Below are positions 2,215 through 64,000 of a stretch of DNA of 64,000 nucleotides, piece after piece. Source of the stretch: an uncultured archaeon (GTDB lineage: Archaea > Asgardarchaeota > Thorarchaeia > Thorarchaeales > Thorarchaeaceae); NCBI GenBank assembly GCA_964590575.1, contig CAZPWM010000002.1, positions 1-64,000 on the forward strand. The letters run 5' to 3'. The position numbers were made by a program, and so were the translations under genes. Numbering within the stretch: position 1 is the first letter of the stretch; the number at the start of each line of letters is the position of its first letter. The notes beneath the pieces are model-generated. The model had not been told where the DNA came from. It did not search any database and saw only the letters and a list, made by a program, of their open reading frames with translations.

Positions 2215-2283
2215 AAAAGAATGTAGGATTTTTACATGTATTATGTTTTGAACGATTGATTAGATTGTACATCCCTCTTTATA

Positions 2284-3315: not shown

Positions 3316-3414
3316 GCATCCCCAACGCTTTCAGATTGAATTCCCTGCTATATCCATCCTAAAACAACAAATGATTGGTGAAACCTTTTATCAAAGATAG
3401 TCGCTCTGTATGCT

Positions 3415-3978
3415 ATGACTCTTGATAAAAACACAACAGTACAGTATTACCCAAATTGGGTTCGAGGTTTGGATGTAATCACCGGTATCGTGGCTTTGAT
3501 TGTAGGATTTTGGATTCTTCTGGACGTATCATTGGTTCAGCTTTCAATTCTATTCCTGTTCTCATTTGCTCTCCTTTTAATCGGCATTACTAGAATTGTA
3601 AAAGTAGCTACAACCTCTGATGAGGTCATGAAGAGTTCTAGTAGGGTCTTCAATGCAGTGGCTGGAGTAGTCGCGATTATTGCAGCTGCTTATGTCTTCC
3701 TGTTTCCATTGTTAACAATACTCGTATCAATCGCAATTTTAGGTGTGGCATTGATGGTTACTGGAACAGCTAGGCTGTATATGGGTGTTGTTGAGGAGGA
3801 CCTACCGACTTGGATGAGAGGTATCAATGTGATTGTAGGTCTTTTGACAATCGGTTTATCCCTCATTGCTATCGCATTGCCTGGATTTGGATTCCTAGTA
3901 CTAGCTGTATTCATCGCATTCACATTCATCTTTAATGCATTCGCTAGATTATCCAGTGGCATATCAGGACACTACTAG
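3415..3978 (+). CDS. HdeD/DUF308-like membrane protein
   Basis: About six TM helices with repeated G..R motifs; paralog of 5454-5996 (YPNWVRGLDV vs YPNWIRGIDV). Confidence 0.65.
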   Translation: MTLDKNTTVQYYPNWVRGLDVITGIVALIVGFWILLDVSLVQLSILFLFSFALLLIGITRIVKVATTSDEVMKSSSRVFNAVAGVVAIIAAAYVFLFPLLTILVSIAILGVALMVTGTARLYMGVVEEDLPTWMRGINVIVGLLTIGLSLIAIALPGFGFLVLAVFIAFTFIFNAFARLSSGISGHY

Positions 3979-3996
3979 TTACTAGTAAAAGAAAAG

Positions 3997-4031
3997 TGGT
4001 TACTGAGCTTGAAAAAAATGGTCAGTAACCA
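3997..4031. terminator. Inverted repeat after the DUF308 gene
   Basis: TGGTTACTGA...TCAGTAACCA 10-bp stem. Confidence 0.4.
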
Positions 4032-4184
4032 TCCAATCCATTTCATATGAAGATATTAATTACCCAGTTCTCCAATAATACTGAAGACACTCCTCATCAA
4101 ATCTCCCTATATCTACCAGAAAAGGCAATCTCACATGTCGTACGATTAATAAGATAGTTTCATGGTGCTTGTTATGGGGATATA

Positions 4185-4772
4185 TTGTCGGAAAACATCA
4201 ACCTTGAAGCAAGTATGGACATAATGTCGATAGCTTCCAAGTATATTGTACTCAGCGTCATTGCTGTTGCTGTGGGATCGGTGAGTATCGTATACTCAAT
4301 TCTGATATATTTGGTCTATGGATTGGAATTCTTAGTTGTTGTGGTTTTTGGAGCATTCTTTACAGGTGCGGCTTTCCTAATCATTGGGACTTTTTTGTCG
4401 TTCTGGGGTTTATTCTGGTTGAGAAATGAAGGTTCTAGACTGAGAAAAAGTATCGAAGGTGAAAAGGAATCAAAGAAGAAAACCACCAAGAAGCATAGCA
4501 AAGTGACCTGGGATACCATCGCTGAACACTCTTATGGTCGAATTGCATGGTACGCTTCGAGATTTTTGATATTCTCTTCGATAGGAATTGTGATTGGATT
4601 TATTGCTCTCGTTTATGGTGTTCTGAACATGTTCTTCTTTGCTGCACCACTACAGGACTTGAACGTGATTCTAGGCGTATTCATAGGAATCGGTTCGATT
4701 GTTGCATCGGTAGTTATTCTAGTGTGGGGCCTGTTCTGGAGACGTCAGGCTGAGAAAAAAAGGATATTCTAA
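4185..4772 (+). CDS. Hypothetical membrane protein with internal duplication
   Basis: Two similar 2-TM units, each ending in WGLFW. Confidence 0.65.
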   Translation: MSENINLEASMDIMSIASKYIVLSVIAVAVGSVSIVYSILIYLVYGLEFLVVVVFGAFFTGAAFLIIGTFLSFWGLFWLRNEGSRLRKSIEGEKESKKKTTKKHSKVTWDTIAEHSYGRIAWYASRFLIFSSIGIVIGFIALVYGVLNMFFFAAPLQDLNVILGVFIGIGSIVASVVILVWGLFWRRQAEKKRIF

Positions 4773-4843
4773 GAGTGAAAAATCCCTGATACTACATAAT
4801 CTGAGATGGTTCCCCTGCAGTTTGCTTTATGTGCCCAGTGACA

Positions 4844-5446
4844 TCAAATACCGACAGTCTTTGACTTGGTTTTATCCCATCCTAGTTTCTTGGCTTTCTT
4901 GTACGCATCACTTGCCTCTTCATAATTACCCAAAATCCAAAGAGTAAGGCGAAGTTGGTTCCACAACTCAGGATCTTTTGGATGCTTTTCAAGTTCATCA
5001 CGAATTCCTTTCTCAGTTCTTTTGTGGTGTGCCATCTCTCTCTCATTCTGAGTATGCATCGCTTGTAGCACTCCCTGTATAAAGGGTCCTTGTTTCTTGA
5101 GGACATATGACTGAAACTCAATTGGTGTTTCTTTGAGAAATGCATTGATAGCTTCGTTGGGAGTATCTTTCTCGCGTCTAAGTTCACCCTGAATGAGTCT
5201 TCGTTCATATGTGGCCTGCATGAAGTTCATAAGTTCCTCAAGATGAATAGTAACCTCGTCATTCTCACCAAGATCATCCAGTGCCTCCTTCCACTCATAA
5301 TAGAGAATTTCAGTTCCTACCGTATAGAGTGTGTTAGGAGTAAGTTTGAGCTTCTTGAGGTCACTAAGCAAACTCTTTACAGTGTATGCATCTCTTATAG
5401 GAAGTCGTGACATCTTTTTATCGACTACCACGTATTCACACTCCAA
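4844..5446 (-). CDS. Hypothetical protein with C-terminal TPR
   Basis: PKDPELWNQLRLTLWILGNYEEASDAYKKA fits the TPR consensus. Confidence 0.7.
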   Translation of the reverse strand: MECEYVVVDKKMSRLPIRDAYTVKSLLSDLKKLKLTPNTLYTVGTEILYYEWKEALDDLGENDEVTIHLEELMNFMQATYERRLIQGELRREKDTPNEAINAFLKETPIEFQSYVLKKQGPFIQGVLQAMHTQNEREMAHHKRTEKGIRDELEKHPKDPELWNQLRLTLWILGNYEEASDAYKKAKKLGWDKTKSKTVGI

Positions 5447-5453
5447 TCCTTTT

Positions 5454-5996
5454 CTAGGTCAATTCACCTTTCGATGCGGCTGCAATTCGAACTAATCCTA
5501 GAACAATGAAGACGACGGACAGCATCAGTCTGAGTGTTAAGAATCCCAGACCTGAAAAGATTGCCGCTAAGAATCCAAAGAAGAAGGCAATCCCACCCCC
5601 TATAATGTTTGACCATCTCACCCATGTTGCTTTTTCCTTCTCGTTGTAACCAACAACAATTCTTGATAATCCCACTAACATTATCGCGAAAGTTAGCATA
5701 GTGATCAGAAATATGACAGTCAAGCTACTGAAAACAAACGACAGAATCGAAAGGGTGATTGCGGCTACACCACTTATTATTTTTACCACACGACTGGTTA
5801 TTGTTAGACCACTCATGGTGATACCTTTTCCGAATCTTATCACTCCGATGAGGAATAGACCAATTGCCATCGTGACTACCAGTGTTGCCTCAACAAGGTC
5901 TGGACTAAAAAGAATCCACACCCCTATTAGGACTGTGACCAGTCCGACAAACACATCAATACCTCTAATCCAATTAGGATATTCTTCTAGCGCCAT
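5454..5996 (-). CDS. HdeD/DUF308-like membrane protein (paralog)
   Basis: Six TM segments; similar to 3415-3978. Confidence 0.65.
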   Translation of the reverse strand: MALEEYPNWIRGIDVFVGLVTVLIGVWILFSPDLVEATLVVTMAIGLFLIGVIRFGKGITMSGLTITSRVVKIISGVAAITLSILSFVFSSLTVIFLITMLTFAIMLVGLSRIVVGYNEKEKATWVRWSNIIGGGIAFFFGFLAAIFSGLGFLTLRLMLSVVFIVLGLVRIAAASKGELT

Positions 5997-6063
5997 AAGC
6001 CCGACGATTTACGTTCAATGATAATGAGTTTTTTGATTAATTACCCATCTGCAACAAAAAACG

Positions 6064-7347
6064 TTAGTTCTTCGTATATTCATTCTGAATTCTTTCTTTC
6101 ACTGGATCCTCAGCTTTTAGAAGTACAAAGAATGCTAGTATGAGAATTATCGAGGCTACAACAAACGGAAAAACTCCAATCAGGCCCGAGTGGGTTTCTC
6201 CTACTACAGGGGTGGCTGTTATGTCTGCCAAGAACCCAAGTAGAAGAGGTCCTATTACGAATCCAAGGTCGCTTATCATACGGTAGAGTCCCATTGATAT
6301 CTCGAGTTTGTCTTTCGGAGACACATCTGTGATATAGGCTGCACTTGGTCCAGATAGACCAATGACCGCTCCATAGATTGCTATAGCCATTGATAGAGTT
6401 AGTAAGTCGGTAGAAAATGGAATTGCTATTGTGATACCTGCAGTCAATAAAAGGCACAATGCAAGAGGAACCTTTCTCCCTATTCTATCTGAAATGCCTC
6501 CCATTGGTGTCATTGTAACAGCGGTCGTTATTCCTCCTATCGTAAGAATAAAACCAATGGCACCCGAATCCAATCCTAGATTGTTTGCTGCGAAAAGAGG
6601 GACTAATGTACTCCTCACACCAGTTCGTAGGAAGAACATAGTGAAGACTGCGAATGTCACAAGAAGAAAAGAGGGATTGGAAAAAACTTGACGCATGTCA
6701 CGAACGATTTCTCTAAAATTGAGAGAAGCCATATCTCCGGAGTTAGTTAAACTGGGGAGTGCAAGTGTTGGGACAACAGCCAGACCTGTTAATAAGGCAT
6801 AGATGAAAAAGGGTGCACGAATGCCATATAGGTCCGCGACAACTCCTCCAAATGTTGGTCCAAAAACAGACCCAAGAAGTAGCATCCCCATGTACAAACT
6901 CATCCATTGCCCTCTTTTCTCCTCTCCAGATATTTGAGCAAGAAACACCGTGGCTGTGGTGACGTAGAGTGCTGAACCTACACCTTCTATCATTCTAGCA
7001 ACTACTAGCGTGATGTAGTCAGGAGCGAGACCTGCTACCACAGATGAAGTTGAGAGAAGGATCAATCCGGAGATCATGATTTTCTTTTTGTCGTACCTCC
7101 TTGAGAGAAGCCCAGCAGGCATATCGAGAACCATTCGTGTTACAGCAAATGATGAAACTACGAAGCCAACAAGAGTATAGGAAACCTGAAAGCTCTCAGC
7201 GTAGGTGGGAAGGATAGGTGCAACCATGCTTAGACCTAGAAGGACCAAGAAAGTCACTAGCGAGAGGTTGAGGACAGTAATCACACTACCCTCATATTTC
7301 GAATTTGGTGTACTCTCTCCATCTAGTTCATAATGTTCTTCCGACAA
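6064..7347 (-). CDS. MFS transporter
   Basis: 12 TM segments; motif A variants GLLSRRYDKK and GGISDRIGRK. Confidence 0.9.
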   Translation of the reverse strand: MSEEHYELDGESTPNSKYEGSVITVLNLSLVTFLVLLGLSMVAPILPTYAESFQVSYTLVGFVVSSFAVTRMVLDMPAGLLSRRYDKKKIMISGLILLSTSSVVAGLAPDYITLVVARMIEGVGSALYVTTATVFLAQISGEEKRGQWMSLYMGMLLLGSVFGPTFGGVVADLYGIRAPFFIYALLTGLAVVPTLALPSLTNSGDMASLNFREIVRDMRQVFSNPSFLLVTFAVFTMFFLRTGVRSTLVPLFAANNLGLDSGAIGFILTIGGITTAVTMTPMGGISDRIGRKVPLALCLLLTAGITIAIPFSTDLLTLSMAIAIYGAVIGLSGPSAAYITDVSPKDKLEISMGLYRMISDLGFVIGPLLLGFLADITATPVVGETHSGLIGVFPFVVASIILILAFFVLLKAEDPVKERIQNEYTKN

Positions 7348-7454
7348 GACCAGTGACCGTCCTTGATGACTCGGACCATCAGCCTCTGGTTAAAGTACTT
7401 TCAGTTTGCACTGCGTTTCTCTAACTCATAAATGAATGCACAAACTCGACAGGA

Positions 7455-8588
7455 TTATTCCATTCTTTTCTTCAAATCTAGCTCATGGACACGGGCCCTT
7501 ACAGTTGCTTCAATTTTATCAATCTGTTTTCGGATGCTCTCAATATTTGCCAGTCTTCTCTCTACCTCGCCCTTCTTTTCTTTATCCAGCTCTACGTGTT
7601 CATCATAAGCATCCGCCCATTCTTGTCTGGTTTGAGTAAGCTGTTGTCTTAGATGCTCGTACATTATCTTCTTCACATGCACAGTGTTTCTAAGGTTGAG
7701 AAGCTTGGTTTCGATTTCTAATGAAAAATCACGGAACTCTTCCTCTGACTCCTTGAGTTTTGCGCGCAGCTCAATCAGCTCAGCCATGTCTTTTCCAATT
7801 TCAACCTCTTGAAGTGGGTGATAATCCTTAGCGACTGGTGTTTCTGTGACAGGTTCTGTCATTGCACCAGTAGTTACGCCACTTGCAACTGTAGGTGTAT
7901 TGGAGCTATATTCAGAGGGCTGACTTTGTTCCATGGCTCTCACTGATACTTCATGTATTGTAGTAATGGTCTGACGATCTTCAGGATTGATCATCATCCT
8001 AGTCAGTTTGTCAAATGCCATATCGATATTCTCACCGGTCAATGCTGAGGTTTCGATGAAGATTGTTGGAGTGTTCAGCTTGTCGCTAAATTTCTTGGTG
8101 AATTCAAGGCCTTCTTCGTATGAGATTATGTCCTCTTTCGGATGATATGACCGAAGGTCTATCTTGTTACCTACTATTATCAGGGCTGGGAATTTCTCCA
8201 TGAATCCTTTCGCCTCGACGAGCCACTTGGTGGCATCATCAAATGATTCTCTATCAACTACTGAATAGACAAGAATCAGCCCACTACACCCCTCGTAGTA
8301 TCGTCTGCGGAGACTCTGGAACTGAGGTTGTCCCGCGATGTCCCATATAACCAGACGGACAGTTTCGTCGTTGGAGAGCATCACTGTTTTTTGTGCAAAA
8401 TCAACACCCAGCGATGGGATATAATTTGACCTGAATCCCTGTCCAAGATACTTTCGACGGATGCTGGTCTTCCCAACATAACCATCACCAATTAGACAGA
8501 TTTTAAATTGCCAGATGCGAGATGCTGCCATACGATTTAGCTCCATTCCCTCAAGGGGCAGCGCAATTATTCTAAATCTAAAATTCAC
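7455..8588 (-). CDS. Rab-like small GTPase with C-terminal coiled coil (true start probably MAASRIW near 8531)
   Basis: G1 GDGYVGKTS, G3 WDIAGQ, G4 NKID, G5 ETSAL; S/T/P-rich linker followed by a heptad-rich tail. Confidence 0.9.
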   Translation of the reverse strand: MNFRFRIIALPLEGMELNRMAASRIWQFKICLIGDGYVGKTSIRRKYLGQGFRSNYIPSLGVDFAQKTVMLSNDETVRLVIWDIAGQPQFQSLRRRYYEGCSGLILVYSVVDRESFDDATKWLVEAKGFMEKFPALIIVGNKIDLRSYHPKEDIISYEEGLEFTKKFSDKLNTPTIFIETSALTGENIDMAFDKLTRMMINPEDRQTITTIHEVSVRAMEQSQPSEYSSNTPTVASGVTTGAMTEPVTETPVAKDYHPLQEVEIGKDMAELIELRAKLKESEEEFRDFSLEIETKLLNLRNTVHVKKIMYEHLRQQLTQTRQEWADAYDEHVELDKEKKGEVERRLANIESIRKQIDKIEATVRARVHELDLKKRME

Positions 8589-51656: not shown

Positions 51657-52364
51657 ATGTCCCGAATAGATGGCAGAGCCAATGATGCGATAAGAGCTGT
51701 AGAATTCACACGTAATTTTCTCAAACATCCCGAAGGTTCTGTTCTAGTTGCAACTGGAGAAACCAAAGTTATCTGCACTGCAACCGTAGAGGAAGGAGTT
51801 CCTGGTTGGCTGAATGGCAAGGGACAGGGGTGGGTAACAGCTGAGTATGGCATGCTGCCTCGGTCTACAGACGACCGAATGAACAGGTACAAAGTCAGTG
51901 GAAGAACTCAAGAAATTCAACGACTAATTGGACGGTCCCTCAGGGCAGCTGTAGATATGACCAAAATTGGAGAAAACACGGTTCGGATTGACTGCGATGT
52001 CATTCAGGCTGATGGTGGAACACGTACCGCATCCATAACAGGTGCCTATGTTGCTCTATGTGATGCAATCCAATACATGATTGAAATGGACATGATCTCC
52101 GAGAGTCCAATCATTGGTAACGTGGCTGCTGTAAGTGTTGGAATAATCACTGGTGAAACATTACTTGATCTCTGCTATTTTGAGGACTCTCAAGCAGATG
52201 TTGACATGAATATTGTCATGCGTGGGACTGATTTTGTTGAGGTTCAAGGAACTGCAGAAGGAGCAACCTTTGGTCGTGAGGCAATGAATGAGATGGTGGA
52301 TTATGCAATAAAAGGCATCTCAGAACTTATTGAGTTTCAAAATAAGACGTTGTTAGTGAAATAG
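51657..52364 (+). CDS. rph: Ribonuclease PH, bacterial type
   Basis: [56 protein letters not shown]. Confidence 0.93.
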
Positions 52365-52422: not shown

Positions 52423-52741
52423 GCTCTCGTCGAAGAGAGGGTCTTATGCGACGTAAACGTCGTGAGGCTTTTCTGGTGGCCCCGGTGACGGAAACTACCC
52501 TCGACGGATAGCAAGCTTTAAATCGCCAGCAAATTAGGCTGGCGGAGCGCTCACTGAAATAGTGATGTGCTAGCGTTTGGTCCGGAGTTCAGAGTTTTCG
52601 AACAATGAACAAAGGTTCATCGGGACCAGGTCATGAGTGAGGTACCATTCCCGATGGAGGACCGTCAACGTGTACGGCTCTGTGAAATGTGTCATGGAGA
52701 GTCAGACGCGTGGACTGCAGAGGATGGAGGTACACTGATTC
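52423..52741 (+). ncRNA. Unidentified structured RNA or long 5' leader of the 23S precursor
   Basis: No ORF of 60 aa or more; stems CGTCGA/TCGACG, GCGACG/CGTCGT, CGCCAGC/GCTGGCG, TGGTCC/GGACCA, GTACC/GGTAC. Confidence 0.55.
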
Positions 52742-52823: not shown

Positions 52824-52842
52824 GACAACAGGTAATACTGTG
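52824..52842 (+). other. 5' arm of the pre-23S bulge-helix-bulge processing stem
   Basis: GACAAC-AGGT-AAT-ACTGTG pairs with 55954-55972 to give a 3-4-3 BHB. Confidence 0.85.
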
Positions 52843-52865
52843 TCAATACATAAGTAGATTTGCGA

Positions 52866-55932
<3,067 letters not shown>

Positions 55933-55953
55933 GCAGATCAAAAGTGTACTTCG

Positions 55954-55972
55954 CACAGTACCTAGGGTTGTC
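55954..55972 (+). other. 3' arm of the pre-23S bulge-helix-bulge processing stem
   Basis: CACAGT-ACCT-AGG-GTTGTC. Confidence 0.85.
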
Positions 55973-56171
55973 AAGAAGAGTTCATTGTAGTAGCGAAGTA
56001 GTATCTCCATCCTCTAGTCTTACCTATCATTTTAATCCATTCCACAATTTCAAACCCAGTGGAAGTTTTACTTGGCTTTTAGGCATAGGTTCTACGAAAG
56101 GGGTGGCCTTGTGGGGTCAGAAAAAGGAAACAATAAGTAAATATGAATCTAAGTAAAGTGGTGTATCCATT

Positions 56172-56873
56172 ATGAGAGGGGAATCACATCTGACAGCTTC
56201 ATTCATGATTAGCCTGCCTACTCTCATGGTTCTGTATAATATGGCACCAGATACAATGATTGACGTGATGGGTTATGTCCTTGGAGGGGTATTACTGGGT
56301 TGCTTACTACCTGATGTAGATGCTTCGGATGCCAAGGTGATGCATGGATATTGGAGGCCAATCGGTCTTTTTGGAAAATACCTATTCTATAAACCAATGA
56401 CATGGATTTTGAGAACTCGCTCTGACGCATATCGAGAGCAACACCGCGGATATTTACACTCATTTATTGGTTGTTTTCTCGCAACGATTTTCTTTGCAAT
56501 CCCGATAGCTATCATATTTCTACATTCAACATATGTACTGCTTCTTCCCTTAGAAACGACTATTTGGGTTTGGTTTGCATGGATTGGATTACCCTTTGGT
56601 TTTCTAATGCATTTGGTTGAAGACAGCTTCACAAAATCAGGAGTACGATGGATTTTTCCTGGCGGTAAAACCTATTCAAGTCAGACAACCACTGGAAAAA
56701 AGAGTGAGTATAATCTTCTATCAGCATTCGTCGTCACATATGGCATTCTCACAGTTATTGTATACATGGCGCCTCCCTCGTTTATTGTTCTATTTGGGGC
56801 TATTCTTGGATCCCTGGTTTTGTTGGGTGCGCTTTATGCGGCTAATCCGATAATTAGTAGACTTTCAAAGTAG
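56172..56873 (+). CDS. YdjM/DUF457-like membrane metal-dependent hydrolase
   Basis: H near the N-terminus, LLPDVD, HRGYLHS, HLVEDSFT. Confidence 0.85.
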   Translation: MRGESHLTASFMISLPTLMVLYNMAPDTMIDVMGYVLGGVLLGCLLPDVDASDAKVMHGYWRPIGLFGKYLFYKPMTWILRTRSDAYREQHRGYLHSFIGCFLATIFFAIPIAIIFLHSTYVLLLPLETTIWVWFAWIGLPFGFLMHLVEDSFTKSGVRWIFPGGKTYSSQTTTGKKSEYNLLSAFVVTYGILTVIVYMAPPSFIVLFGAILGSLVLLGALYAANPIISRLSK

Positions 56874-56891
56874 ACTGGTGCCAAGTAAAAA

Positions 56892-56934
56892 TGACCGGAA
56901 ATAGAACTGTAGAAAGTGCTACTTTTCCGGGTCA
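56892..56934. terminator. Imperfect hairpin
   Basis: TGACCGGAAA...TTTCCGGGTCA. Confidence 0.4.
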
Positions 56935-57219
56935 GTAAGGGTTGTGGGAACAGATTAGTACTGTCAGTGTTCCAATGTCGCAAAATCATCTGGAAAGACC
57001 GGTTGGAAATGGGTGCGGTGCGAGAGCAACTTGCCCTGTTGGAGAGAGCCTGATTCGTATTTGAATGGTCGGAAGTGCAGTCACCTCACTTGCATCCTCT
57101 TTGTCACAGTCCACCTCACGGATCGAACCCACTGGCAGGTCATGCTCCTGCAACTTTTCTCTCCACAAGCCTTGAGTATAGTATAAAAGAGCTTGCTGGA
57201 AAGATGATATCGGAGGGAA

Positions 57220-58194
57220 GTGACGTTCAAACCAGACAAACTCAGTAAGGATGCTATATCCGCAGTGAAGCAGATAATAGGTTATAGAAGCACTCCGATG
57301 GAAGACAGACCACAAGTAGAAGATATGTTTCAGACATCATTTGGAAAAACACTTGGTAGCCAAGTTGGTGAAATTCTAGATTTTGCAAAGAGAGGACAAA
57401 TTCTCCTAATAATACTTCCACTCACTAAAATCATGGAGAAATTACAGAGATTCATTCAAGATGGAAGTTATCTTAGGGCTGAGGAAAGCTCTCTATCACC
57501 CAAAGATATTGATAAGATGAAGGCCTTTGAGGTTGTCATGCAGGATGTCGATGTTGAGGACACTGTAGAAACTGTGGAAGATGTGATAGACCAGGACGAT
57601 GAGCTCTGGTACCTGTCATTGATAACATTTACAGTGTATGCGTATGTGGATGTTTACTCGAAGAGTCTAATCAAAAGTTTGACATCAAATCCATTACTGA
57701 TGGAGAAATTAGAAACATATCTTGAAAGAGAAGCGCTTCAAAATAAAGACGATATAGAGAGAAAATATGTCACATCAGTTACAGATCTCTCGCAGTACGG
57801 AGTTAGTCGGAGGCTTTGGACCATAGAAAGAGGTCTGTCAATAGACCAGATTTTATCTAAGATCACAAATCCAGATGTTCTTAGCATAATTAGAAGCAGC
57901 TTTATCAAAATCATAAAAACAAGACATAAAATTGCACATAGAAATCCAAAGTTGAAAAGAGATGACTACACATATGAGATGTTTGAGGGTGTTTCAAACA
58001 CTGTCGAAGAATTGGATTTCACTTTTAATGAAATAGAAGAAACATTCGGATTTCTGAAGCCAATATTTGGCACAATCAAAAATCTGGGAAAGCAGACAAT
58101 GGATAGAATTAAGAGAACTATGAATATTGCCTACATGACAATGCTGTATCCAGCATTAATTGATGTAGTAGTTCACGATTTGATGGAAGATTAG
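57220..58194 (+). CDS. Predicted HEPN-domain protein
   Basis: All-helical acidic protein with an R-x4-H motif (RHKIAH, codons 57922-57939). Confidence 0.65.
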   Translation: MTFKPDKLSKDAISAVKQIIGYRSTPMEDRPQVEDMFQTSFGKTLGSQVGEILDFAKRGQILLIILPLTKIMEKLQRFIQDGSYLRAEESSLSPKDIDKMKAFEVVMQDVDVEDTVETVEDVIDQDDELWYLSLITFTVYAYVDVYSKSLIKSLTSNPLLMEKLETYLEREALQNKDDIERKYVTSVTDLSQYGVSRRLWTIERGLSIDQILSKITNPDVLSIIRSSFIKIIKTRHKIAHRNPKLKRDDYTYEMFEGVSNTVEELDFTFNEIEETFGFLKPIFGTIKNLGKQTMDRIKRTMNIAYMTMLYPALIDVVVHDLMED

Positions 58195-58484
58195 TAATAG
58201 TGATAATGATAAGTCATTTCTAATTATGAGTAAGAATCTCTCAAAAAGGATGGTAATCGTTTCTTAGTGCACAGGGAGTGATGACTTCATAACATCGTAG
58301 GTACCCAGACTAGAAATGTGAGGTTACCATTGATCTTGAAATCGAAAACAAGACAGGACATACACTCGCACCTAATAATATGGCAATTAGCACAATGGAT
58401 GGATGGTTTAAGGGCATCCACCCACAAGTATCAGGACTACCCCAATGAAGCACCGCACCGGATACAGACACTTCGGGTGAAGTG

Positions 58485-58517
58485 AAAAAAGAGGGGGCGG
58501 CAAATTAGCACCGCCCC
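58485..58517 (-). terminator. GC hairpin followed by T-tract
   Basis: Minus strand GGGGCGG-TGCTAATTTG-CCGCCCC-CTCTTTTTT after the 42-aa gene. Confidence 0.6.
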
Positions 58518-58537
58518 ATTGAACTGAGAATTAGTGA

Positions 58538-58666
58538 TTACTTCTTTGATCCACCTCGATCGGCTGCACTCTGTGCACGTCTAGCAAAACCTTGATTTCG
58601 ACCAGACTTGGCTGAATGACTCTGGATTCTGGATGCTGAACTCTTGGACATTCCTTTTTTTCCCAA
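58538..58666 (-). CDS. Small basic SMP/LEA-like protein (42 aa, MGKKGMSKSSASRIQSHSAKSGRNQGFARRAQSAADRGGSKK)
   Basis: GGAGGTGA SD before TTG; ASRIQS...FA.RAQSAA motif. Confidence 0.7.
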   Translation of the reverse strand: MGKKGMSKSSASRIQSHSAKSGRNQGFARRAQSAADRGGSKK

Positions 58667-58780
58667 TGATTCACCTCCGTATTCATCATGAGGAATACTT
58701 GGCAGAATCAGAATATCAGACTTTGATGATGTGCATTGCATACGAATATTGTGCAAATCAGATTCACAGTACCTAGAGTT

Positions 58781-60588
58781 AAAACCTGTATCTTACAATT
58801 GTGAGTGAACTGCAAGAGACTCCTGTGTTCCACCTTTCTCACGACTACTGTCACCAGCTTCTGAATGTCTGGGGTCTTTCAGAGTGTCGCAAGCTTTGCC
58901 CCTCTTCACTGGAACATCGTTCCTCTGATGGGACCTGGCTTCTGTCCGCTGCATTGATTCACACTCACCAGTTGGTGCGATTGCAGTCGGTGTTTCCACA
59001 GCATTTGCCATGGCAAGGTCTTTGCCCCTCACAAACTCCACAAGTGAAGTCTGGTCATAGGAGCCAGCCACGGACTCCCCTTTCGAGTCTGGTGTCCCCT
59101 GGGGGAGTGCGGACTTCCCTACAGAAGAAGACTTCTTCCTCCGGGCTTTCAGTATGGCCCTATCCTTAGAGGTGAGCCACATCCCTAGTCCGTTCTCATC
59201 TCTCAGTGAGGGGATGAGCATGATGAGGCGCTTCCCAATGTTGAGAGCGCCATTCAGGTCGGCGTTCAGCTTTAGTCCACAAGTGGTACAGATGAAGAGA
59301 TTCTGCTTCGGTCTCGCTCCCTTATGTCCGCATTTGTGACACATGATGGAGGTCCATTGCTCTGGAACTGCTTTGAACCTCTTGGGATCGAAACCAATTG
59401 ATGCGAGCTTGTGCTCCAGCATCCCACTGATTCTTGCAAAGGCCCATCGGTGAATCTTTCCCCTGTACTCTCTTCCCCTGCTGTTCCCCTTGCGGGCTAT
59501 GTTCCTGATTCCCTTCAGCCGACCGATTGAGACATAGAGGTCATTTTGGTTTGTCATCTCTCTGATGTGGTCAGAGATGTCCCTAATCAGTTTCTTGTCA
59601 TACTCTATACTGATTCGTTCTCTCTTTCCACTCAGACTCCTGAGCTGTGCAGTCACTCGATCAGTGTTCTGACCTTTGGAAACAAGGAGCTCTTTCTCTT
59701 TCTGGAGTGAAGCAACCCTCTCATCCAAAGACCTTATGCGTCGGAGCTTGTCCTCTTGTTTCCAATATCTGACGTGCTTGTATCCCTTCTTGGTTAGAAG
59801 GACTGAACACGCAGCCTTGTTTATTCCAAGGTCGATGGAGAGAACAGCAAGGGGCTTTCTAGCGGTATCAATCCTGTCAACAGCAAGAGTGACGGTGAAG
59901 ATAGCCCACCACTTGCGACGAGAATCCTTGAAGATTCGAACTGTCTTCACATCTCCCTCCTTCATCCTGTTTAGATGAAATGATGAGATGGAGAGGGGAA
60001 TCATGAGTCTATCATGCTGATAACGCCCCTCATTCACAGAGTCCAGCGAGTCCCGTAGTTTCAACCAGTGTCTAATCTCCAGCTCTGGTGAGTATACAAG
60101 CTCAAAACGTTGGATGAATGCAAAGCGTGGGATCTTTCGAGTAGAATATCCTATTCTCCTAAGGGGTTTGGAACCACCTTTTTCAAGATAGCTCTGCCAC
60201 ATGGCAACTGCAGTACCCCTACACTCCTGAAACTCGTTCACTGAAATGTTTGGAAATCGAACCTTGAAGTCATGGGGTACCGAACTTCGGTTGGCTTTGC
60301 CTCGGGATGCTGTCAGGGTGAGTTCATCTAGTTTATTTGCGTCAAGTTTACTTCGTCTACGACCTATCAGCAACTCGTCTTCGTGACATTCAATCACTCC
60401 AAGATACGCCCTGATGACTCTTGTGTCTCTTCCAGTAATTCGGTTGAGCCGAGTCTTCTGCTTGTCAGTCATAGAGTCCCAACGTATTGGGACCTTCACA
60501 CTGATTATTGTACCCTTGGAGCGACCCATTCATTTCACCTGAGGATTTAAACTTCTGACCTGTCTCTTTCGAGTTCACTCCCTTTCTC
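58781..60588 (-). mobile_element. Non-autonomous tnpB-only IS200/IS605- or IS607-like element (boundaries inferred)
   Basis: Contains only tnpB; left flank ends TTGAC on the minus strand; joined flanks resemble the 23S 3' spacer. Confidence 0.5.
58793..60529 (-). CDS. tnpB: RNA-guided endonuclease TnpB (Cas12f-like) with long C-terminal extension
   Basis: RuvC-I SIDLG, bridge helix, RW.F, PEQWTSIMCHKC...FICTTC Zn finger, NADLNGALNI. Confidence 0.92.
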   Translation of the reverse strand: MGRSKGTIISVKVPIRWDSMTDKQKTRLNRITGRDTRVIRAYLGVIECHEDELLIGRRRSKLDANKLDELTLTASRGKANRSSVPHDFKVRFPNISVNEFQECRGTAVAMWQSYLEKGGSKPLRRIGYSTRKIPRFAFIQRFELVYSPELEIRHWLKLRDSLDSVNEGRYQHDRLMIPLSISSFHLNRMKEGDVKTVRIFKDSRRKWWAIFTVTLAVDRIDTARKPLAVLSIDLGINKAACSVLLTKKGYKHVRYWKQEDKLRRIRSLDERVASLQKEKELLVSKGQNTDRVTAQLRSLSGKRERISIEYDKKLIRDISDHIREMTNQNDLYVSIGRLKGIRNIARKGNSRGREYRGKIHRWAFARISGMLEHKLASIGFDPKRFKAVPEQWTSIMCHKCGHKGARPKQNLFICTTCGLKLNADLNGALNIGKRLIMLIPSLRDENGLGMWLTSKDRAILKARRKKSSSVGKSALPQGTPDSKGESVAGSYDQTSLVEFVRGKDLAMANAVETPTAIAPTGECESMQRTEARSHQRNDVPVKRGKACDTLKDPRHSEAGDSSREKGGTQESLAVHSQL

Positions 60589-60778
60589 GTCAAGATGAAA
60601 GGTTTTGAACTCCTACTATTTTCTGTTACATAAGGGGATTTAAACTTATTAAGCCGTTTATGAAATAAGGCATTATGAGGCACTATTATTTAAAATAAGA
60701 CATTATCAATCCTTATTTGACTCACCAATAAGAACGGATATCTTATAAATTAAAATATAAGGAAGATACTGATTTGAT

Positions 60779-63700
60779 ATGGGTCGCAAGCCTAGGGAGA
60801 TACATCCGAATGCAATACTGACTGTCTCGATCTATACAGGACTTGCTGCATTGGTCAGGCTTGCGAGAAAGCGAGTTGACAAGAAGACACGGAAATACCT
60901 TGAGAGCATTCTAACACATTGGAGCAAAGCTCGAGAAGAACACAAGAAGAATCGAGAGAGTGTTGGAAGACAACGACTTGACTTCTCCTCAATCAAGAAC
61001 GCAGAGTCCAACATGCGAAAATTCTTCCTCAAGATTCTCTGGCACAGTACGCGACGTTATGGGAACAAGGAATTCAAGCGGGTATACAGCTGGGAAGAGG
61101 GAACTGTTGGACCACTTAATGCATTACTCAACTACCTTGGAGCCCGACTGAGAGACCTAGCAATGACCAGATATCCATTTCCAGAACCCGAGAAATTCCA
61201 GATCAGGGTATATCCAGATGAGACAAGATTGACGGTTCAAAAGAAACACGTGTCTAATTATGCACAGGATAATGCTGAAGACACATACTGGAAGGCAGGA
61301 TACAAGGGAAACAGGAAACATCCCACAGTGTTGTTGACACACCCCTCACTACCAGGATTGGACTTTGTTGATATGATACGTGCCCATGGTGTTGAGCTTG
61401 TCCGTCAGTGTTTCATCCACAATGTTCCACGGTCTGAAGCTCACAGGTACATCAGATTGTTGCTCCATAGACTCACTCCGTTCTTGGACCATGTCTATAC
61501 TCAAGGAAAGTGTGGTAGAAACTACTTCGAGCCAGATGCCGACAAGGAGCTCAGAAGACTGGTTCTGGAGATCCGTAGTCGATACAGTGGGCGTGTGGGG
61601 AAGAAACAGTCCATATCCAGAGGTCTGGACCTGGACATCCCGGAACCCGATGTGGACATCTTGTGGAAGAAAGTGAGTGAGCTGGTTGAAAACACTCAGG
61701 ACAAGAAGACAAGAAAGAGATACGGAAAGATTCTGGATAATATTGACCAAGGACTAATTGTAGACAGGGACATCCAGAAGCTCTATGACCAGGTCTTTGC
61801 CCTTGGACAGAAGGAGGGAAATGACTGGCACAGAGTCCTCCTGTCGGACCTTCACCACCCCGTGTCGTTGAGGTCTGTGATCTTTGCTGGGGACAGGATG
61901 CTTGACAAGCCCACATCGGTCCTGATTGTAGCCGAACTCCCAGTGAAAGGACTCGAAGGGATTGGACGCATAGATTTGACCGTGTTCATCAGGCTAAACA
62001 TCAAGGGGCGCGTGTTCTGGAGTCCTGTGATGGTCATTGAGGTCAAGTCAAAGACCTCTTTCGACTTCAATCTCTATGCTGTGAAGACTGGTAAGAAGAA
62101 AGAGTGGCCCCCAGTACTATACGTATGGAAGAGAATTCTGACACAGGAGGAATGGGACAGGACCATAGAGTCAGACCCTGATGACCGGGTCTTAAAGCAA
62201 CTCGAGGCCTACGAAAAGGCATTGTTGGAGGAGAGCAGGACTCTGATTCCCAATGGTGTCGAACTCCCAAAGAGGCTCCTGAAGGGAGTTATTGTGCTTG
62301 ACACAGATCAGGACTACTCGGAGGTATTCAATGCTTTCCACACTCTTCTCGATGAACTGACCACTGAGATTCTCAAAGGCGGACTTGATGTGAGAGCAAC
62401 TCAGACACTGTCTCTCAAGTCAGATGATGTTGGTGTTACCATTCCACGAGTTGCACTGATGCTTCTAGAGAGCGAGAACATAGACACATTCCTCAGGGAG
62501 CAGTCAGCTACTTTGTCACTCTCTGTTGAGAATCCCTTCAAGGAGAGAGTGTCTGATGACCGTCTGCTGACACACTATGTTTCAATTTCTTCTTCAACAT
62601 CTTTCGGGAACGCAGCAGCATGGGTTTCTAGAAACTGGCACCTTTTGAACCACATCGAGGAGGTCGCTGAAGGATTGAGTGAGGACCTACAAGTCTACTG
62701 GCTCGATCTCTTGGGTGACTATCCATCCAAACAACTCATCAAGAGAAGGTTTGGTCTTGACACTCTATTGAAGCACAAGCAGATTGCCAAGAAGAGGCAT
62801 GAAGCACTGACCTCTCTCCTTGAGAGTATCACCTTTGTCAACCTGAGAAACAATGTTGAGTCTATTATCTCTGGGGAATCTGCCGAACTCCAAGAGATCA
62901 AGATGAAAGGCCCTCATGACATGGAGAGAATCATCATTGTTGATGGATGGGTTCAAATCAGAGAGATGGTTTCTCCAGGTGAAGCGGACATTCTGAGAAA
63001 CTTTGAAAACCACCTCTTAGATGTTCTACCCACCCAGAATGTGAATGTGATTTGGATTGACAGTGGAGTCACCCACACAAAGATGAACAAGCACTATCAG
63101 AGGGCCTGTATAAGACCTCTACGTCACGACTCCCCTCGCCGGTTTCACATAGACGAAATTATCTACAATGTACCAACTGCACCACGGTTGTTTGGTTGGA
63201 GGGTTCCAAGAAATGAGGACACGAGGTTCATCATCCAAGACACTCCAACCTCCGCAGATCCCTGGATACGACCCATAAGAGTGCCGCAACTGAGGGGATG
63301 GGCCCGAAAGTATCGAGGAGTCACAAAAAGGGATGGATTCGTCGACCCAGCAGATGTCTATGGGATTGACTTCGAGGGAGTACCTATGTATGGTCGTTCT
63401 GTGACACTCAATGAGGTCCACTCATCGATTGCACCCCTGACATCTGAAACTGTAAAACATCTGCAAGGAATTGGAAAGACCCTCATCCCAAGTCTATCAA
63501 GGCGAGAGGAATCAGCTCCAGACAGACAGTCAACAGAGAAACAATGGAGGGGGGTTCCGTTGCCCGTCACCAGAAAGGACTCTCCTTCACTCACCGACAG
63601 AATGACTTTCACACCTGGGAGACCTCCTCCACAGCATCACAAGAATAGGGGATTGTATGTTGATTTCTTGAAAATCAAGAGGGGCTGGTACTATGACAGA

Positions 63701-64000
63701 ATCCCCATTGATATCAATGACGAGGAGTATGAGGTGGGAGTTTCCCGAAGACCACCAATATATCGAAGGACTGGACTGGATGAGGTGGATTCACAAAAAG
63801 TCCGCAGGAGAGAGGTCAAACGAGTCATGAGCGCAGCGAGATTCCTGAGAAGACAGCTTGACAAAGACAAGAATAGTCGCCTTCACTCATGCTGCGGCGA
63901 CATTATCAGAGTGTGCGCAGATGTGCTCTCAGACACCCATGATGAAGAGGCCTTGTTGGTCGTTCTATCGGAGGTTAGAGGCATCATTCTCCGTGATTCT
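60779..64000 (+). CDS. Large protein (at least 1074 aa, 3'-truncated) with central PD-(D/E)xK nuclease domain; absent from the ORF track
   Basis: Manual translation from ATG 60779 (MGRKPREIHPNAIL...) shows no stop up to base 64000; AELPV...GRIDL...MVIEVKSK...QLEAY motifs. Confidence 0.8.
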   Translation, partial: MGRKPREIHPNAILTVSIYTGLAALVRLARKRVDKKTRKYLESILTHWSKAREEHKKNRESVGRQRLDFSSIKNAESNMRKFFLKILWHSTRRYGNKEFKRVYSWEEGTVGPLNALLNYLGARLRDLAMTRYPFPEPEKFQIRVYPDETRLTVQKKHVSNYAQDNAEDTYWKAGYKGNRKHPTVLLTHPSLPGLDFVDMIRAHGVELVRQCFIHNVPRSEAHRYIRLLLHRLTPFLDHVYTQGKCGRNYFEPDADKELRRLVLEIRSRYSGRVGKKQSISRGLDLDIPEPDVDILWKKVSELVENTQDKKTRKRYGKILDNIDQGLIVDRDIQKLYDQVFALGQKEGNDWHRVLLSDLHHPVSLRSVIFAGDRMLDKPTSVLIVAELPVKGLEGIGRIDLTVFIRLNIKGRVFWSPVMVIEVKSKTSFDFNLYAVKTGKKKEWPPVLYVWKRILTQEEWDRTIESDPDDRVLKQLEAYEKALLEESRTLIPNGVELPKRLLKGVIVLDTDQDYSEVFNAFHTLLDELTTEILKGGLDVRATQTLSLKSDDVGVTIPRVALMLLESENIDTFLREQSATLSLSVENPFKERVSDDRLLTHYVSISSSTSFGNAAAWVSRNWHLLNHIEEVAEGLSEDLQVYWLDLLGDYPSKQLIKRRFGLDTLLKHKQIAKKRHEALTSLLESITFVNLRNNVESIISGESAELQEIKMKGPHDMERIIIVDGWVQIREMVSPGEADILRNFENHLLDVLPTQNVNVIWIDSGVTHTKMNKHYQRACIRPLRHDSPRRFHIDEIIYNVPTAPRLFGWRVPRNEDTRFIIQDTPTSADPWIRPIRVPQLRGWARKYRGVTKRDGFVDPADVYGIDFEGVPMYGRSVTLNEVHSSIAPLTSETVKHLQGIGKTLIPSLSRREESAPDRQSTEKQWRGVPLPVTRKDSPSLTDRMTFTPGRPPPQHHKNRGLYVDFLKIKRGWYYDRIPIDINDEEYEVGVSRRPPIYRRTGLDEVDSQKVRRREVKRVMSAARFLRRQLDKDKNSRLHSCCGDIIRVCADVLSDTHDEEALLVVLSEVRGIILRDS

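Follow-up and report, generated by a model that had tools for sequence, protein, structure and literature searches.

We report a TnpB-like element downstream of the 23S rRNA gene of an uncultured Thorarchaeota genome, whose predicted guide resembles the processing arm of the host pre-23S rRNA. The most probable reading, to which we give a probability of about 0.68, is a non-autonomous Asgard TnpB element whose right end directly adjoins a decayed paralogue of the 23S end and its BHB half, the guide likeness having arisen by descent. A TnpB guide is whatever adjoins the right end, so the guide here would be related to the processing arm by descent, and a spare copy of the 23S end is found at 58751-58780 because the genus stacks variable genes between 23S and ubiA. 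On this reading, the likeness to host rRNA would be a by-product of element location, which calls for caution in scans for "reprogrammed" guides.

The window is the whole stretch of DNA analysed, 64,000 nt of one contig (C2) of the genome under study (G000; 3.4 Mb, 91% complete). C11, C64 and C141 are other G000 contigs, while G001, G002 etc. are Thorarchaeota genomes of the same genus. RNA evidence consists of assembled contigs of runs X6 and X7 from two studies, in which strand and RNA ends are not visible. The features are collected in Table 1.

Table 1. Features of the 23S-downstream region and of the TnpB-like element (window positions)
Feature	Position	Strand	Basis or remark
BHB 5' half in 23S leader	52824..52843	+	cofold pairing and inspection; leader-like RNA contig ends
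23S rRNA gene (archaeal LSU)	52860..55939	+	Rfam RF02540, 2494.9 bits, model positions 1-2987
BHB 3' half, resident (guide target in the preliminary description)	55953..55972	+	cofold, inspection, RNA contigs
23S processing helix, distal 3' strand	55973..56021	+	cofold; inverted repeat; pairs with 52713-52736; T-rich stretch after
Cassette gene, YdjM-like membrane hydrolase	56172..56873	+	Pfam PF04307, E 5.9e-16
Cassette gene, weak HEPN (RiboL-PSP) likeness	57220..58194	+	Pfam PF18735, E 1.4e-4, below cut-off
Decayed extra copy, 23S last bases and BHB 3' half to ..ACCTAGAGTT	58751..58780	+	9/10 plus 15/16 identity to 55931-55969
Predicted 16-nt guide	58765..58780	-	right-end boundary and family rule; antisense to BHB 3' half
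Omega-RNA module and right end, 415 nt	58781..59195	-	identity pattern, mini-elements, RNAalifold covariation
tnpB-like gene, 578 aa	58793..60529	-	Pfam PF07282 TNB domain, E 1.4e-13
Left inverted-repeat arm	60562..60606	-	counterpart of 58781-58820; contains GTCAAGATGA (60589-60598)
Further conserved left-end sequence (GTAGGAGTTC..., then TATA-like TAATAAGTTTAAAT)	60607..60651	-	shared among copies
Cargo gene (start), 1879 aa	60779..64000	+	ends at contig base 66418, past the window

No 16S gene was found in the 64-kb window. Leader and trailer of the 23S gene together show the layout of an archaeal pre-23S BHB, i.e. helix, 3-nt bulge, 4-bp helix, 3-nt bulge and helix. The 5' half is made up of GACAAC (outer helix), AGGT (central 4 bp), AAT (bulge) and ACTGTGT (inner helix), with the leader cut between 52835 and 52836, and the resident 3' half of GCACAGT, ACCT, the bulge AGG and GTTGTC. 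RNA contigs place the trailer cut at 55965|55966, within the core of the repeat described below. The preliminary description had located the BHB 3' arm in 55954-55979, and contigs from both studies agree with it: two in X6 and three in X7 run from 55965 into leader-like sequence from 52836, as a circular junction would. These contigs stem from close relatives (2-6 differences), and the junction end is absent from the two DNA runs. They are direct RNA evidence for a BHB cut and a circular pre-23S junction in an uncultured lineage. BHB processing and circular pre-rRNA intermediates are known in archaea (PMC7038931, PMC10351888, PMC7714728), and as far as the available sections of these sources go, the resident site is no different, sharing the bulged-helix layout and the trailer-leader RNA junction. 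What is unusual is that its 3' half is repeated several times downstream. In the window, as in the loci of three relatives, the motif AGGT-AAT-ACTGTG occurs once per locus, namely at the true leader, and all remaining matches carry 3 mismatches; no 5' BHB halves, which would permit self-excision at the RNA level, were thus detected in the cassettes.

Judged from its sequence, the region between 23S and ubiA/ubiE in this genus is an array of variable genes, each bounded by a repeat that consists of the 23S 3' end, a BHB half and a trailer. One option in the preliminary description, an island that integrated at the 23S 3' spacer and duplicated it, was thus essentially right, and extends to a whole array of insertions in several species. 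The 23S 3' end was found in 14 of 18 other same-genus genomes, six of which hold more than one copy (G001, 6; G002, 5; G013, 3; G010, G014 and G017, 2 each, that of G014 including one 28-nt match elsewhere). Altogether 27 distinct copies in 15 genomes have ..CAGTACCTAGRGTT in common; 25 continue into a trailer starting with GT or GC, one is a contig end, and one, in the window, meets the right end of the element. The genes between copies vary by genome (YdjM, HepT, LRR proteins, esterase), and the last copy is followed by ubiA or ubiE. In G011 there is no array, and ubiA begins 146 nt past the single copy.

In the window, 55941-56942 is 94.6% identical to the second-position cassette of G013, and the resident BHB 3' half itself opens the trailer carried along by the YdjM cassette. 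The HEPN-like gene has a counterpart of 94% identity downstream of 23S in G001. The copy at 58751-58780 lacks 9 nt and is cut off by the right end of the element, while 66422-66485 of the contig, directly past the stop of the cargo gene, aligns with 55960-56021 (score 52; shuffle maximum 25). At 56913-56945, which corresponds to a complete repeat in G013, a possible decayed repeat was rejected, having position only in its favour (score 18 versus 17.1 +/- 2.0 in shuffles).

Integrative elements in tRNA genes duplicate part of the gene on integration (att duplication), and integrons form cassette arrays. The array resembles both in that a repeated attachment sequence bounds variable inserts at one conserved site: the end of a conserved RNA gene serves as recurrent insertion point, and partial direct repeats of it bound each insert. 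Small, variable and mostly single-gene units also accumulate in tandem and differ among species. In contrast to those systems, the repeat here combines the 23S 3' end with the BHB 3' half, the exchange point lies at most 6 nt from an RNA cut, the cassettes bring their own trailer and T-run, and no integrase or other recombinase family was found among the 23 ORFs scanned with Pfam in G000, G002 and G013. Full-text literature searches touching on the subject showed no description of such an array, with its variable genes set between copies of the 23S 3' end and BHB half; the available part of PMC8813620 describes a Heimdallarchaeal element that lies between a 16S gene and a tRNA gene as an insertion. 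In our view, an array with exchange points beside an RNA cut site is worth more than the original guide claim.

That claim started from a string match. CACAGTACCTAGAGTT (58765-58780) joined to GTCAAGATGA (60589-60598) had been said to reconstitute CACAGTACCTAGGGTTGTCAAGAAGA (55954-55979). The positions and the match of 24/26 are correct, and the weight is carried by the 16-nt half only. For this half the window has two occurrences at no more than one mismatch, a number reached by 0 of 100 shuffles, and in the whole 3.4-Mb genome the sole other place is the 23S trailer. The 10-mer alone matches 14 times in the window at the same threshold; the expectation is 8.6, and at least 14 matches were obtained in 8 of 100 shuffles. 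The echo of GTGCAGATCA (55931-55940) in GTGCAAATCA (58751-58760) also holds, at 9/10 identity. Judging by these matches, the right-flank half is a true paralogue of the 23S 3' trailer. Chance could be invoked for the 10-mer, which stands at chance level; as an explanation of the likeness it is barely credible, being refuted for the 16-mer by the shuffles and by the single genome match, and opposed by the adjacent 9/10 match to the 23S terminus and by the rest of the same trailer on the far side of the unit.

The right end of the element was fixed by several lines of evidence. A structured omega-RNA overlaps the last 134 codons, i.e. the 3' end, of tnpB, carries GTTCACTCA in the loop of its final hairpin and ends with ..GGTTTT at 58781, the right end, as in OMEGA systems. 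It is 85-89% identical to the copies in relatives (75-80% for the rest of the element), and it occurs by itself in 14 mini-elements, 13 of which share the same start base. For 24 copies, RNAalifold predicts 116 pairs, and compensatory changes occur in 42 of them. All 24 aligned copies are conserved to ..GGTYTT and unrelated beyond, in three sister copies from G000 the likeness ends at 58780/58781, and contigs of other copies, from DNA as well as RNA, stop at 58779-58781. Conservation extends about 21 nt beyond the GTTCAC that had been considered as a rival right end, in 24/24 copies, so that this rival is rejected. According to the available parts of PMC8612924 and 10.1101/2023.03.14.532601, TnpB guides derive from the flank past the right end. 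With the right end at 58781, the segment 58765-58780 is the flank that would supply a TnpB guide, as had been proposed. The predicted guide matches the resident site at 15/16, with one mismatch at guide position 4, and the genus consensus at 16/16. The G at 55966 is also present with a GTCAAG-type trailer in G013, G002 and G014; it travels with the trailers in these genomes, which lack this guide, so the mismatch is not an escape mutation.

The left end had been placed at 60588|60589, with the 10-mer as flank and TTGAC as TAM. The 10-mer sits within the element, in the left inverted-repeat arm (alignment score of the inverted repeat 40, versus 19.8 +/- 3.4 and a maximum of 37 in 500 shuffles), and since it is element sequence, joining it to the 16-mer does not recreate an empty site. 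Sequence upstream of the proposed boundary is common to 10 of 11 copies: GTAGGAGTTCAWAAC lies 20-35 nt past it in 10/11, and the TATA-like block about 70 nt past it in 9/11. These shared blocks show that the left end lies beyond 60651. At the position of the 10-mer the copies vary, and in run X4 a variant of it forms a loose end at 60587. In G000, the left-end motif plus core is present only beside family copies (C2, C11, C64, C141), with no "empty" copies of the left-end sequence. With the left end not at 60588|60589, TTGAC as TAM is unsupported; it also lacks a basis in the empty sites of two sister copies, which read ..GTCGTATA| and ..ATGAGAA|. Full-length copies are T-rich just outside the shared block in 6 of 10, the boundary not being sharp. 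Two further candidates were dropped. A TAM could not be derived from the mini-elements, which sit in a larger, variably deleted repeat that makes the left boundary unreadable, and 60589-60650 is no decayed trailer (best score 18 against 30 distinct trailers; shuffles 18.3 +/- 2.4).

The protein scores 51.2 bits with PF07282 (cut-off 26.3) and 94.4 bits with the NCBIfam model guided_TnpB, just under its cut-off of 100. Its best PDB sequence matches are TnpB/Cas12f chains (E 1.6e-7 to 1e-6), in the C-terminal part only. Among 23 relatives there is no variation at D233 (IDLG), D424 (NADLN) and the CxxC..CxxC zinc finger, and an invariant Gly336 occupies the canonical RuvC-II Glu position; the invariant E390 could be the relocated RuvC-II Glu. 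Clades with such a rearranged RuvC-II (Glu to Gly) are held to be active in the available text of PMC10691335. A TldR-like nuclease-dead regulator was considered and rejected: the zinc finger and two of the three RuvC residues are retained, a genome can contain as many as 23 matches, whose flanks are unrelated, and 60 of 60 other loci have no rRNA flank.

The element moves with a partner. TnpB and the 1879-aa gene form a unit of 7.6 kb, from 58781 to contig base 66421. The 1879-aa protein belongs to no Pfam or NCBIfam family (sub-threshold TPR match only) and has 78 homologues, none of them a named relative; the given source names are nearly all Thorarchaeota, with one Lokiarchaeota and one Promethearchaeati. 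C2:58780-66398 is 74.7% identical to C64:8501-883, whereas at their far ends the two units show no likeness. In seven relatives the C64 site is present but lacks the unit, and their left flank recurs at C64:34-558 and 781-800; the alignments show the C64 sister unit as an insertion relative to these seven. TATAG is shared at both of its junctions. At a second empty site (L071) the right junction only can be read, and in G015 the left flank is on another contig and diverges 42 nt early. In the window, ACCTAGAGTT stands on both sides of the unit (58771-58780 and contig 66422-66431). Departing from the IS200/IS605 pattern, the two empty sites have unequal motifs 5' of the target, and sequence is shared across the junctions. 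Y1 TnpA (Pfam PF01797) was not found in G000; among 28 genus genomes one had it, on a contig of 513 nt, in a search whose controls matched in 6 of 14 genomes. No transposase having been found, rules borrowed from IS200/IS605 may not hold. A TnpA-less Asgard TnpB family whose insertion is readable against empty sites in seven relatives makes a tractable case for studying the movement of TnpB elements that lack TnpA.

For the history by descent we propose that the omega-RNA would end about 16 nt beyond 58781, that the nuclease may be active through its relocated Glu, and that the unit probably inserted itself, anchored by its right end, at a repeat-rich site where insertions are tolerated. Such an insertion would leave ACCTAGAGTT on both sides, as with TATAG at C64, and the resident site would stay uncut. 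Cleavage of the resident site, with its single mismatch, may nevertheless occur.

One observation counts against the main reading: the ACCTAGAGTT repeat around the unit has its start at precisely the base where an unrelated cassette junction starts in G002, which suits core-specific recombination and transposition equally well. Entry of the unit as a further cassette, by the recombination at the ACCTAG core to which the rest of the array would be due, the right end merely coinciding with one cassette end and the likeness still being by descent, is somewhat unlikely and the leading alternative. That G002 junction (L050:6515) comes after an unrelated esterase cassette and begins its 23S likeness at the same base, with the same GTTCAAGG-type trailer; together with the ACCTAGAGTT copies flanking the unit it suits this alternative. 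Moreover, the core G/A variant stays with the right-hand trailer in four genomes, which places the exchanges within ACCTAG. However, other cassettes start with trailer and T-run and the window unit with its right end, and the 23 scanned ORFs offer no integrase or recombinase. The C64 unit also lies at a non-rRNA site where the junctions share only TATAG, so a unit can move without the core.

A guide aimed on purpose is quite unlikely. TnpB would then cut unoccupied 23S trailers (tRNA genes for the C11 type) and thereby drive homing or integration, with conserved RNA-gene ends, identical in all strains, as targets. Several findings that speak against mere descent point this way. A second TnpB (52% identical), again accompanied by the giant gene, occurs in the 23S-downstream region of G001, where its right end borders a 23S-end copy of 200 nt, with position and orientation differing from those in G000, so that two diverged units adjoin 23S-end copies. 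Two such junctions among about 62 loci examined is more than random insertion predicts. The C11 guide repeats a tRNA-like 5' end that lies about 330 nt upstream of the left end of the element, and in three genomes the C11-type copies have duplicated tRNA-like 5' ends on either side. This segment is called tRNA-like solely by its likeness to real tRNA 5' ends: ARAGORN found no tRNA genes beside nine family loci, and Rfam gave one tRNA 1.4 kb away in C11 and no match at the duplicated segment. In G000, the right-end flanks of 2 of 7 copies match structured-RNA genes. The 16/16 match to the genus consensus trailer, the invariant RuvC-I/RuvC-III Asp and zinc finger, and the presumed activity of Glu-to-Gly clades (available text of PMC10691335) are also compatible with an aimed guide. 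Against it, the 60 other family loci examined are all without an rRNA-like flank, right-end flanks are unique in 5 of 7 G000 copies, and the element is absent from the other 25 copies with readable downstream sequence (15 genomes). The 5' motifs of the empty sites given above differ from TTGAC, TGAAC, TAGAC and TGGAC in the trailers. TnpB is expected to cut 15-21 nt from the TAM, and such a cut would fall away from the ACCTAG core. The preliminary description, which had offered a programmed guide as one option, named three outcomes that would count against it (ends elsewhere, another TAM, homologous loci without an rRNA match), and two of the three were found.

Regulation of processing is very unlikely. 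Here, a 3' extension of the omega-RNA would act as antisense on the pre-23S trailer, mask the BHB 3' half and modulate processing. The transcript strand past 58781 is complementary to 55954-55969 with one mismatch and spans the mapped cut site, and the omega-RNA module is present in RNA libraries of two studies. On the other hand, the flank exists in one copy of one genome only, 16 nt are weak against a very abundant, intramolecularly paired target, and the contigs tell neither strand nor ends. No RNA contigs cover 58636-58780 of the window copy, with depth 0 in X6 and 0.3 in X7, the latter derived from the contig of another copy, so RNA cover is uninformative either way.

More speculatively, and with less confidence than for the aimed guide, the 23S BHB 3' half may anchor a gene-capture platform in Thorarchaeota, with RNA-guided, rRNA-anchored insertion in place of passive landing. 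The exchange of cassettes would take place a few bases at most from the RNA cut point of the splicing endonuclease, and TnpB units would take part with guides that start with the core antisense; for example, unoccupied cores would be cut and circular units would integrate. In a weaker variant, RNA cleavage and ligation at repeated BHB halves would feed back into DNA.

Returning to the element itself, its closest known counterparts are the TnpB-omega-RNA (OMEGA) nucleases of IS200/IS605 (ISDra2), which have a homing role (PMC8612924; 10.1101/2023.03.14.532601; PMC10690162). Relative to the available accounts in these sources, the window element shares the TNB/RuvC protein, the RNA over the gene 3' end and right end, and the predicted guide position in the right-end flank, and its family shares the many copies with unrelated flanks and the mini-elements with the RNA module only. 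It differs in its inverted-repeat ends, 415-nt scaffold and RuvC-II Gly, in the Y1 TnpA counts given above, in the 5.6-kb cargo gene that moves along, and in having 5-10 nt common to both junctions where a clean TAM|element|guide order would be seen.

Asgard TnpB groups with a conserved GTTCACTCA downstream of tnpB, and Glu-to-Gly clades with NADXN in RuvC-III, are described in the available text of PMC10691335. The window element shares with them the Asgard host, NADLN, the RuvC-II Gly, repeat-flanked loci and, close to the 3' end, the exact GTTCACTCA, a likeness in motifs and residues. Those groups are tied to an Asgard Cas1 homologue in the same text, whereas the Pfam Cas1 model, which could miss a diverged aCas1, finds none in G000 and one among 28 genus genomes. 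The variable stretch before GTTCACTCA, proposed there as a possible guide, here forms the 5' arm of a hairpin that shows covariation, and about 21 nt past the motif are conserved as well.

The preliminary description joined 58765-58780, beyond the tnpB stop, to 60589-60598, upstream of tnpB, and matched them to 55954-55979 behind the 23S rRNA gene. The quoted strings lie at the positions it gave and the count of 24/26 is right, but only the 16-mer half of the match exceeds chance. This half occurs twice at <=1 mismatch in the window, which none of 100 shuffles reached, and at the same threshold its sole other place in the whole genome (3.4 Mb, 194 contigs; the window covers the initial 64 kb of the 84-kb contig C2) is the 23S trailer. 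With 14 matches in the window versus 8.6 expected, the 10-mer half does not rise above chance. Candidatus Thorarchaeota is the name of the best relatives for two window proteins.

The leader-trailer pairing of the pre-23S RNA spans ~130 nt, and its bulge-helix-bulge (BHB) motif has the helices GACAAC/GTTGTC, AGGT/ACCT and ACTGTGT/GCACAGT and the bulges AGG (55964-55966) and AAT (52834-52836). In two metatranscriptome studies, RNA contigs (two in X6 and three in X7) reach 55965 and then continue with leader-like sequence from 52836, a junction that was not seen in the two DNA runs. This is the junction of a circular pre-23S RNA in which each bulge is cut after its second base, and it locates the BHB cut sites of this Thorarchaeota lineage between 55965 and 55966 and between 52835 and 52836. 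The pairing and the RNA junction at 55965 thus support the earlier naming of this segment as the BHB 3' arm. The same BHB 3' half is the repeat core (ACCTAG) of an array behind the 23S gene; the 5' half occurs once per locus.

Immediately upstream of the 23S leader lies an RNase PH gene (51657-52364); its one Thorarchaeota relative is 78% identical, and the remaining relatives among the best 80 loci are nearly all bacterial (55-63% identity), which suggests a bacterial-type enzyme acquired by this lineage. At another copy of the element (L071, G015:C189, ~2406-2425), the right-end flank has ACCTAGGTAATACT, in which the leader bulge and the two strands of the central BHB helix are adjacent; this is a host feature because empty alleles in three genomes read identically, and it possibly belongs to another BHB-bearing RNA.

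The genomes of the genus are fragmented, with contigs broken by repeats; in these, the 23S 3' end is present in 14 of 18 other genomes and in more than one copy in six. Between 23S and ubiA or ubiE there are variable, mostly single-gene inserts. Each is bounded by repeats (modules) that combine the final 6-90 nt of 23S with the BHB 3' half and continue as a variable trailer with a T-run. In the relatives G002, G013 and G001, module copies lie behind the 23S gene at distances of 1-2.5 kb from one another. The sequence ..CAGTACCTAGRGTT is common to 27 distinct copies from 15 genomes, and 25 of these 27 continue into a variable trailer ending in ..TCCATCCTYTG and then a T-run. The cassettes between modules carry YdjM and HEPN-like genes in the present genome (G000), HepT and YdjM in G013, and LRR proteins and an esterase in G002. 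Together with its trailer, the YdjM piece stands in first place in G000 and in second place in G013 (94.6% identical), and the HEPN-like gene of G000 shares 94% identity with one in G001. The last module leads to ubiA or ubiE; in G011 (L023) a sole module, with the ubiA start 146 nt after it, represents the insert-free state.

In the modules, the left part is specific to the genome and the right part to the cassette, in four genomes a G/A variant of the core stays with the right part, and two junctions (contig 66422; G002 L050:6515) begin their 23S-end similarity at ACCTAG. Exchange points therefore lie within or just before ACCTAG, adjoining the RNA cut site. Directly after the YdjM gene, 56913-56945 is a possible decayed remnant of the 23S end and core, where G013 has a full copy; its score is within that of shuffles.

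Coordinates of the array, the TnpB element and related loci (G, genomes; C, contigs, with C2 containing the window; L, loci)
Feature	Location	Strand	Remarks
23S gene, archaeal	52860-55939		only one in window
Array loci	window 55953-58780 and C2 to 66485; L050 (G002:C33) 1-7455
Array loci	L051 (G013:C34) 3003-5094; L052 (G001:C32) 4277-8291
tnpB-like ORF	58793-60529	minus	578 aa; Cas12f1-like TNB domain; near-threshold NCBI guided_TnpB match
omega-RNA module	59195-58781	minus	last 415 nt; 85-89% conserved vs 75-80% elsewhere in element
Giant gene, 1879 aa	60779 to contig 66418		C2/C64 similarity stops at its stop codon
Giant-gene loci	window 60779-64000 on to 66418; L084 (C64) 883-6400; L083 (G012:C270); L053 2233-7941
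G001 second tnpB	L053 (G001:C17) 1-2000		23S-end copy starts ~170 nt before 23S terminus, sense; contig ends at ACCTAG
Sister-subfamily loci with tRNA-like flank	contig C11 27480-29700 (L013, L085); L058; L082

Straight after the stop of the giant gene, contig 66422-66485 repeats 55960-56021 (score 52; shuffle maximum 25), which makes it one part of a second 23S-end/trailer module whose other part is 58751-58780; ACCTAGAGTT is found at either side of the 7.6-kb unit of tnpB and giant gene. This unit recurs on contig C64 (C2:58780-66398 vs C64:8501-883, 74.7% identity), and it also resembles a locus in G012, where the comparison covered the part from 60369 on. As the C64 site is free of the unit in seven relatives, the ~7.7 kb there is a single insertion; it comprises tnpB, the giant gene and ~75 nt more, with TATAG at each junction, and the left flank of those relatives recurs at C64:34-558 and 781-800. 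The giant gene and tnpB move as one unit. At their far ends, the C2 and C64 units differ from one another. The giant gene is divergently oriented to the adjoining family tnpB in four loci of three genomes. Searches of Pfam and NCBIfam with the giant protein (78 homologues) gave no known domain, and nearly all source names given for the homologues are Thorarchaeota.

Besides the window copy, G000 contains three further full copies of the element, 67-80% identical, on contigs C64, C111 and C11, as well as several partial ones, and the TnpB protein is found at E <= 1e-50 in 16 of 28 genus genomes, with up to 23 matches per genome. Similarity to sister copies breaks off at 58780/58781, an alignment of 24 copies is conserved as far as ..GGTYTT and not beyond, and contigs of other copies (two DNA runs, one RNA run) stop at 58779-58781; the right end is thereby placed exactly by sequence comparison. 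The 415-nt module at this end occurs alone in 14 mini-elements of five genomes, with the same start base in 13, and compensatory changes support 42 of the 116 pairs in its consensus fold; it is the omega-RNA of the element. GTTCAC, proposed earlier as an alternative right end, is discarded: it belongs to the loop of the final covarying hairpin, with ~21 conserved bases beyond it. PMC10691335 suggests the variable stretch before GTTCACTCA as a possible guide of Asgard TnpBs; the covarying hairpin and the ~21 conserved bases after the motif speak against this here. The mini-elements (L086-L099; G015, G012, G008, G034, G031) have only the module and ~55 nt of left-end sequence, those of G015 sitting within a longer repeat with variable deletions, and run X4 contains an internal-deletion form of the element (59015 joined to 60544).

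On the left, an end between 60588 and 60589 does not hold: GTAGGAGTTCAWAAC is found 20-35 nt further out in 10 of 11 copies, and TATA-like TAATAAGTTTAAAT ~70 nt beyond that point in 9 of 11. In G000, the left-end sequence is found beside family copies only. The inverted repeat of 60562-60606 and 58781-58820 scores 40 (shuffles 19.8 +/- 3.4, maximum 37 in 500), and GTCAAGATGA, formerly read as left flank, is the left-arm counterpart of GTAAGATACA at the right end; sister copies differ there. The sequence beyond GTCAAGATGA resembles none of 30 trailers and was rejected as a trailer. At 60566-60577 the left end has GGGAGTGAACTC, in whose transcript 9 nt would be complementary to the GTTCACTCA loop at 58806-58814 in the last hairpin of the omega-RNA. 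It may serve as a transposase site (inverted repeat), or alternatively in an RNA-RNA contact of tnpB leader and omega-RNA.

All 23 relatives of the protein keep D233 (RuvC-I), D424 in NADLN (RuvC-III), the CxxC..CxxC finger and E390, and all have a Gly at the canonical RuvC-II Glu position. Large TnpB clades with a Glu-to-Gly change and an alternative Glu are described in PMC10691335 and considered active there, and the RuvC-II change described there is exactly that of the G000 TnpB. Pfam searches for Y1 TnpA and for Cas1 each found none in G000 and one positive among 28 genus genomes.

The two explanations offered in the preliminary description, an rRNA-targeted guide and an island duplicating the 23S spacer, fare differently: the duplication is borne out by the array, and a guide directed at the rRNA processing site is unlikely. 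A directed guide would fit G001, where a 52%-identical TnpB lies behind the 23S gene, again with a giant gene and a HEPN-like gene, and abuts a 200-nt 23S-end copy with its right end, in another position and orientation than in G000; however, an rRNA-like flank is absent from all 60 other family loci, right-end flanks are unique in five of seven cases in G000, and the element is absent from every other trailer seen. At two empty sites (..GTCGTATA and ..ATGAGAA), the sequence 5' of the target is also unlike that at trailers, and the single mismatch to the resident site arrived with the YdjM-type trailer rather than as an escape change. The array is more likely a tolerated, repeat-rich landing zone for the TnpB unit. 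Further in favour of directed insertion, duplicated tRNA-like 5' ends flank C11-type copies on both sides in three genomes.

Members of this sister subfamily have, as their right-end flank, a repeat of 22 nt from the start of a tRNA-like sequence; this sequence, with its TATA-like upstream region, lies ~330 nt upstream of the left end. Neither ARAGORN nor Rfam called a tRNA at the tRNA-like segment. The element seems to have split a tRNA-like gene and to have supplied a replacement 5' part.
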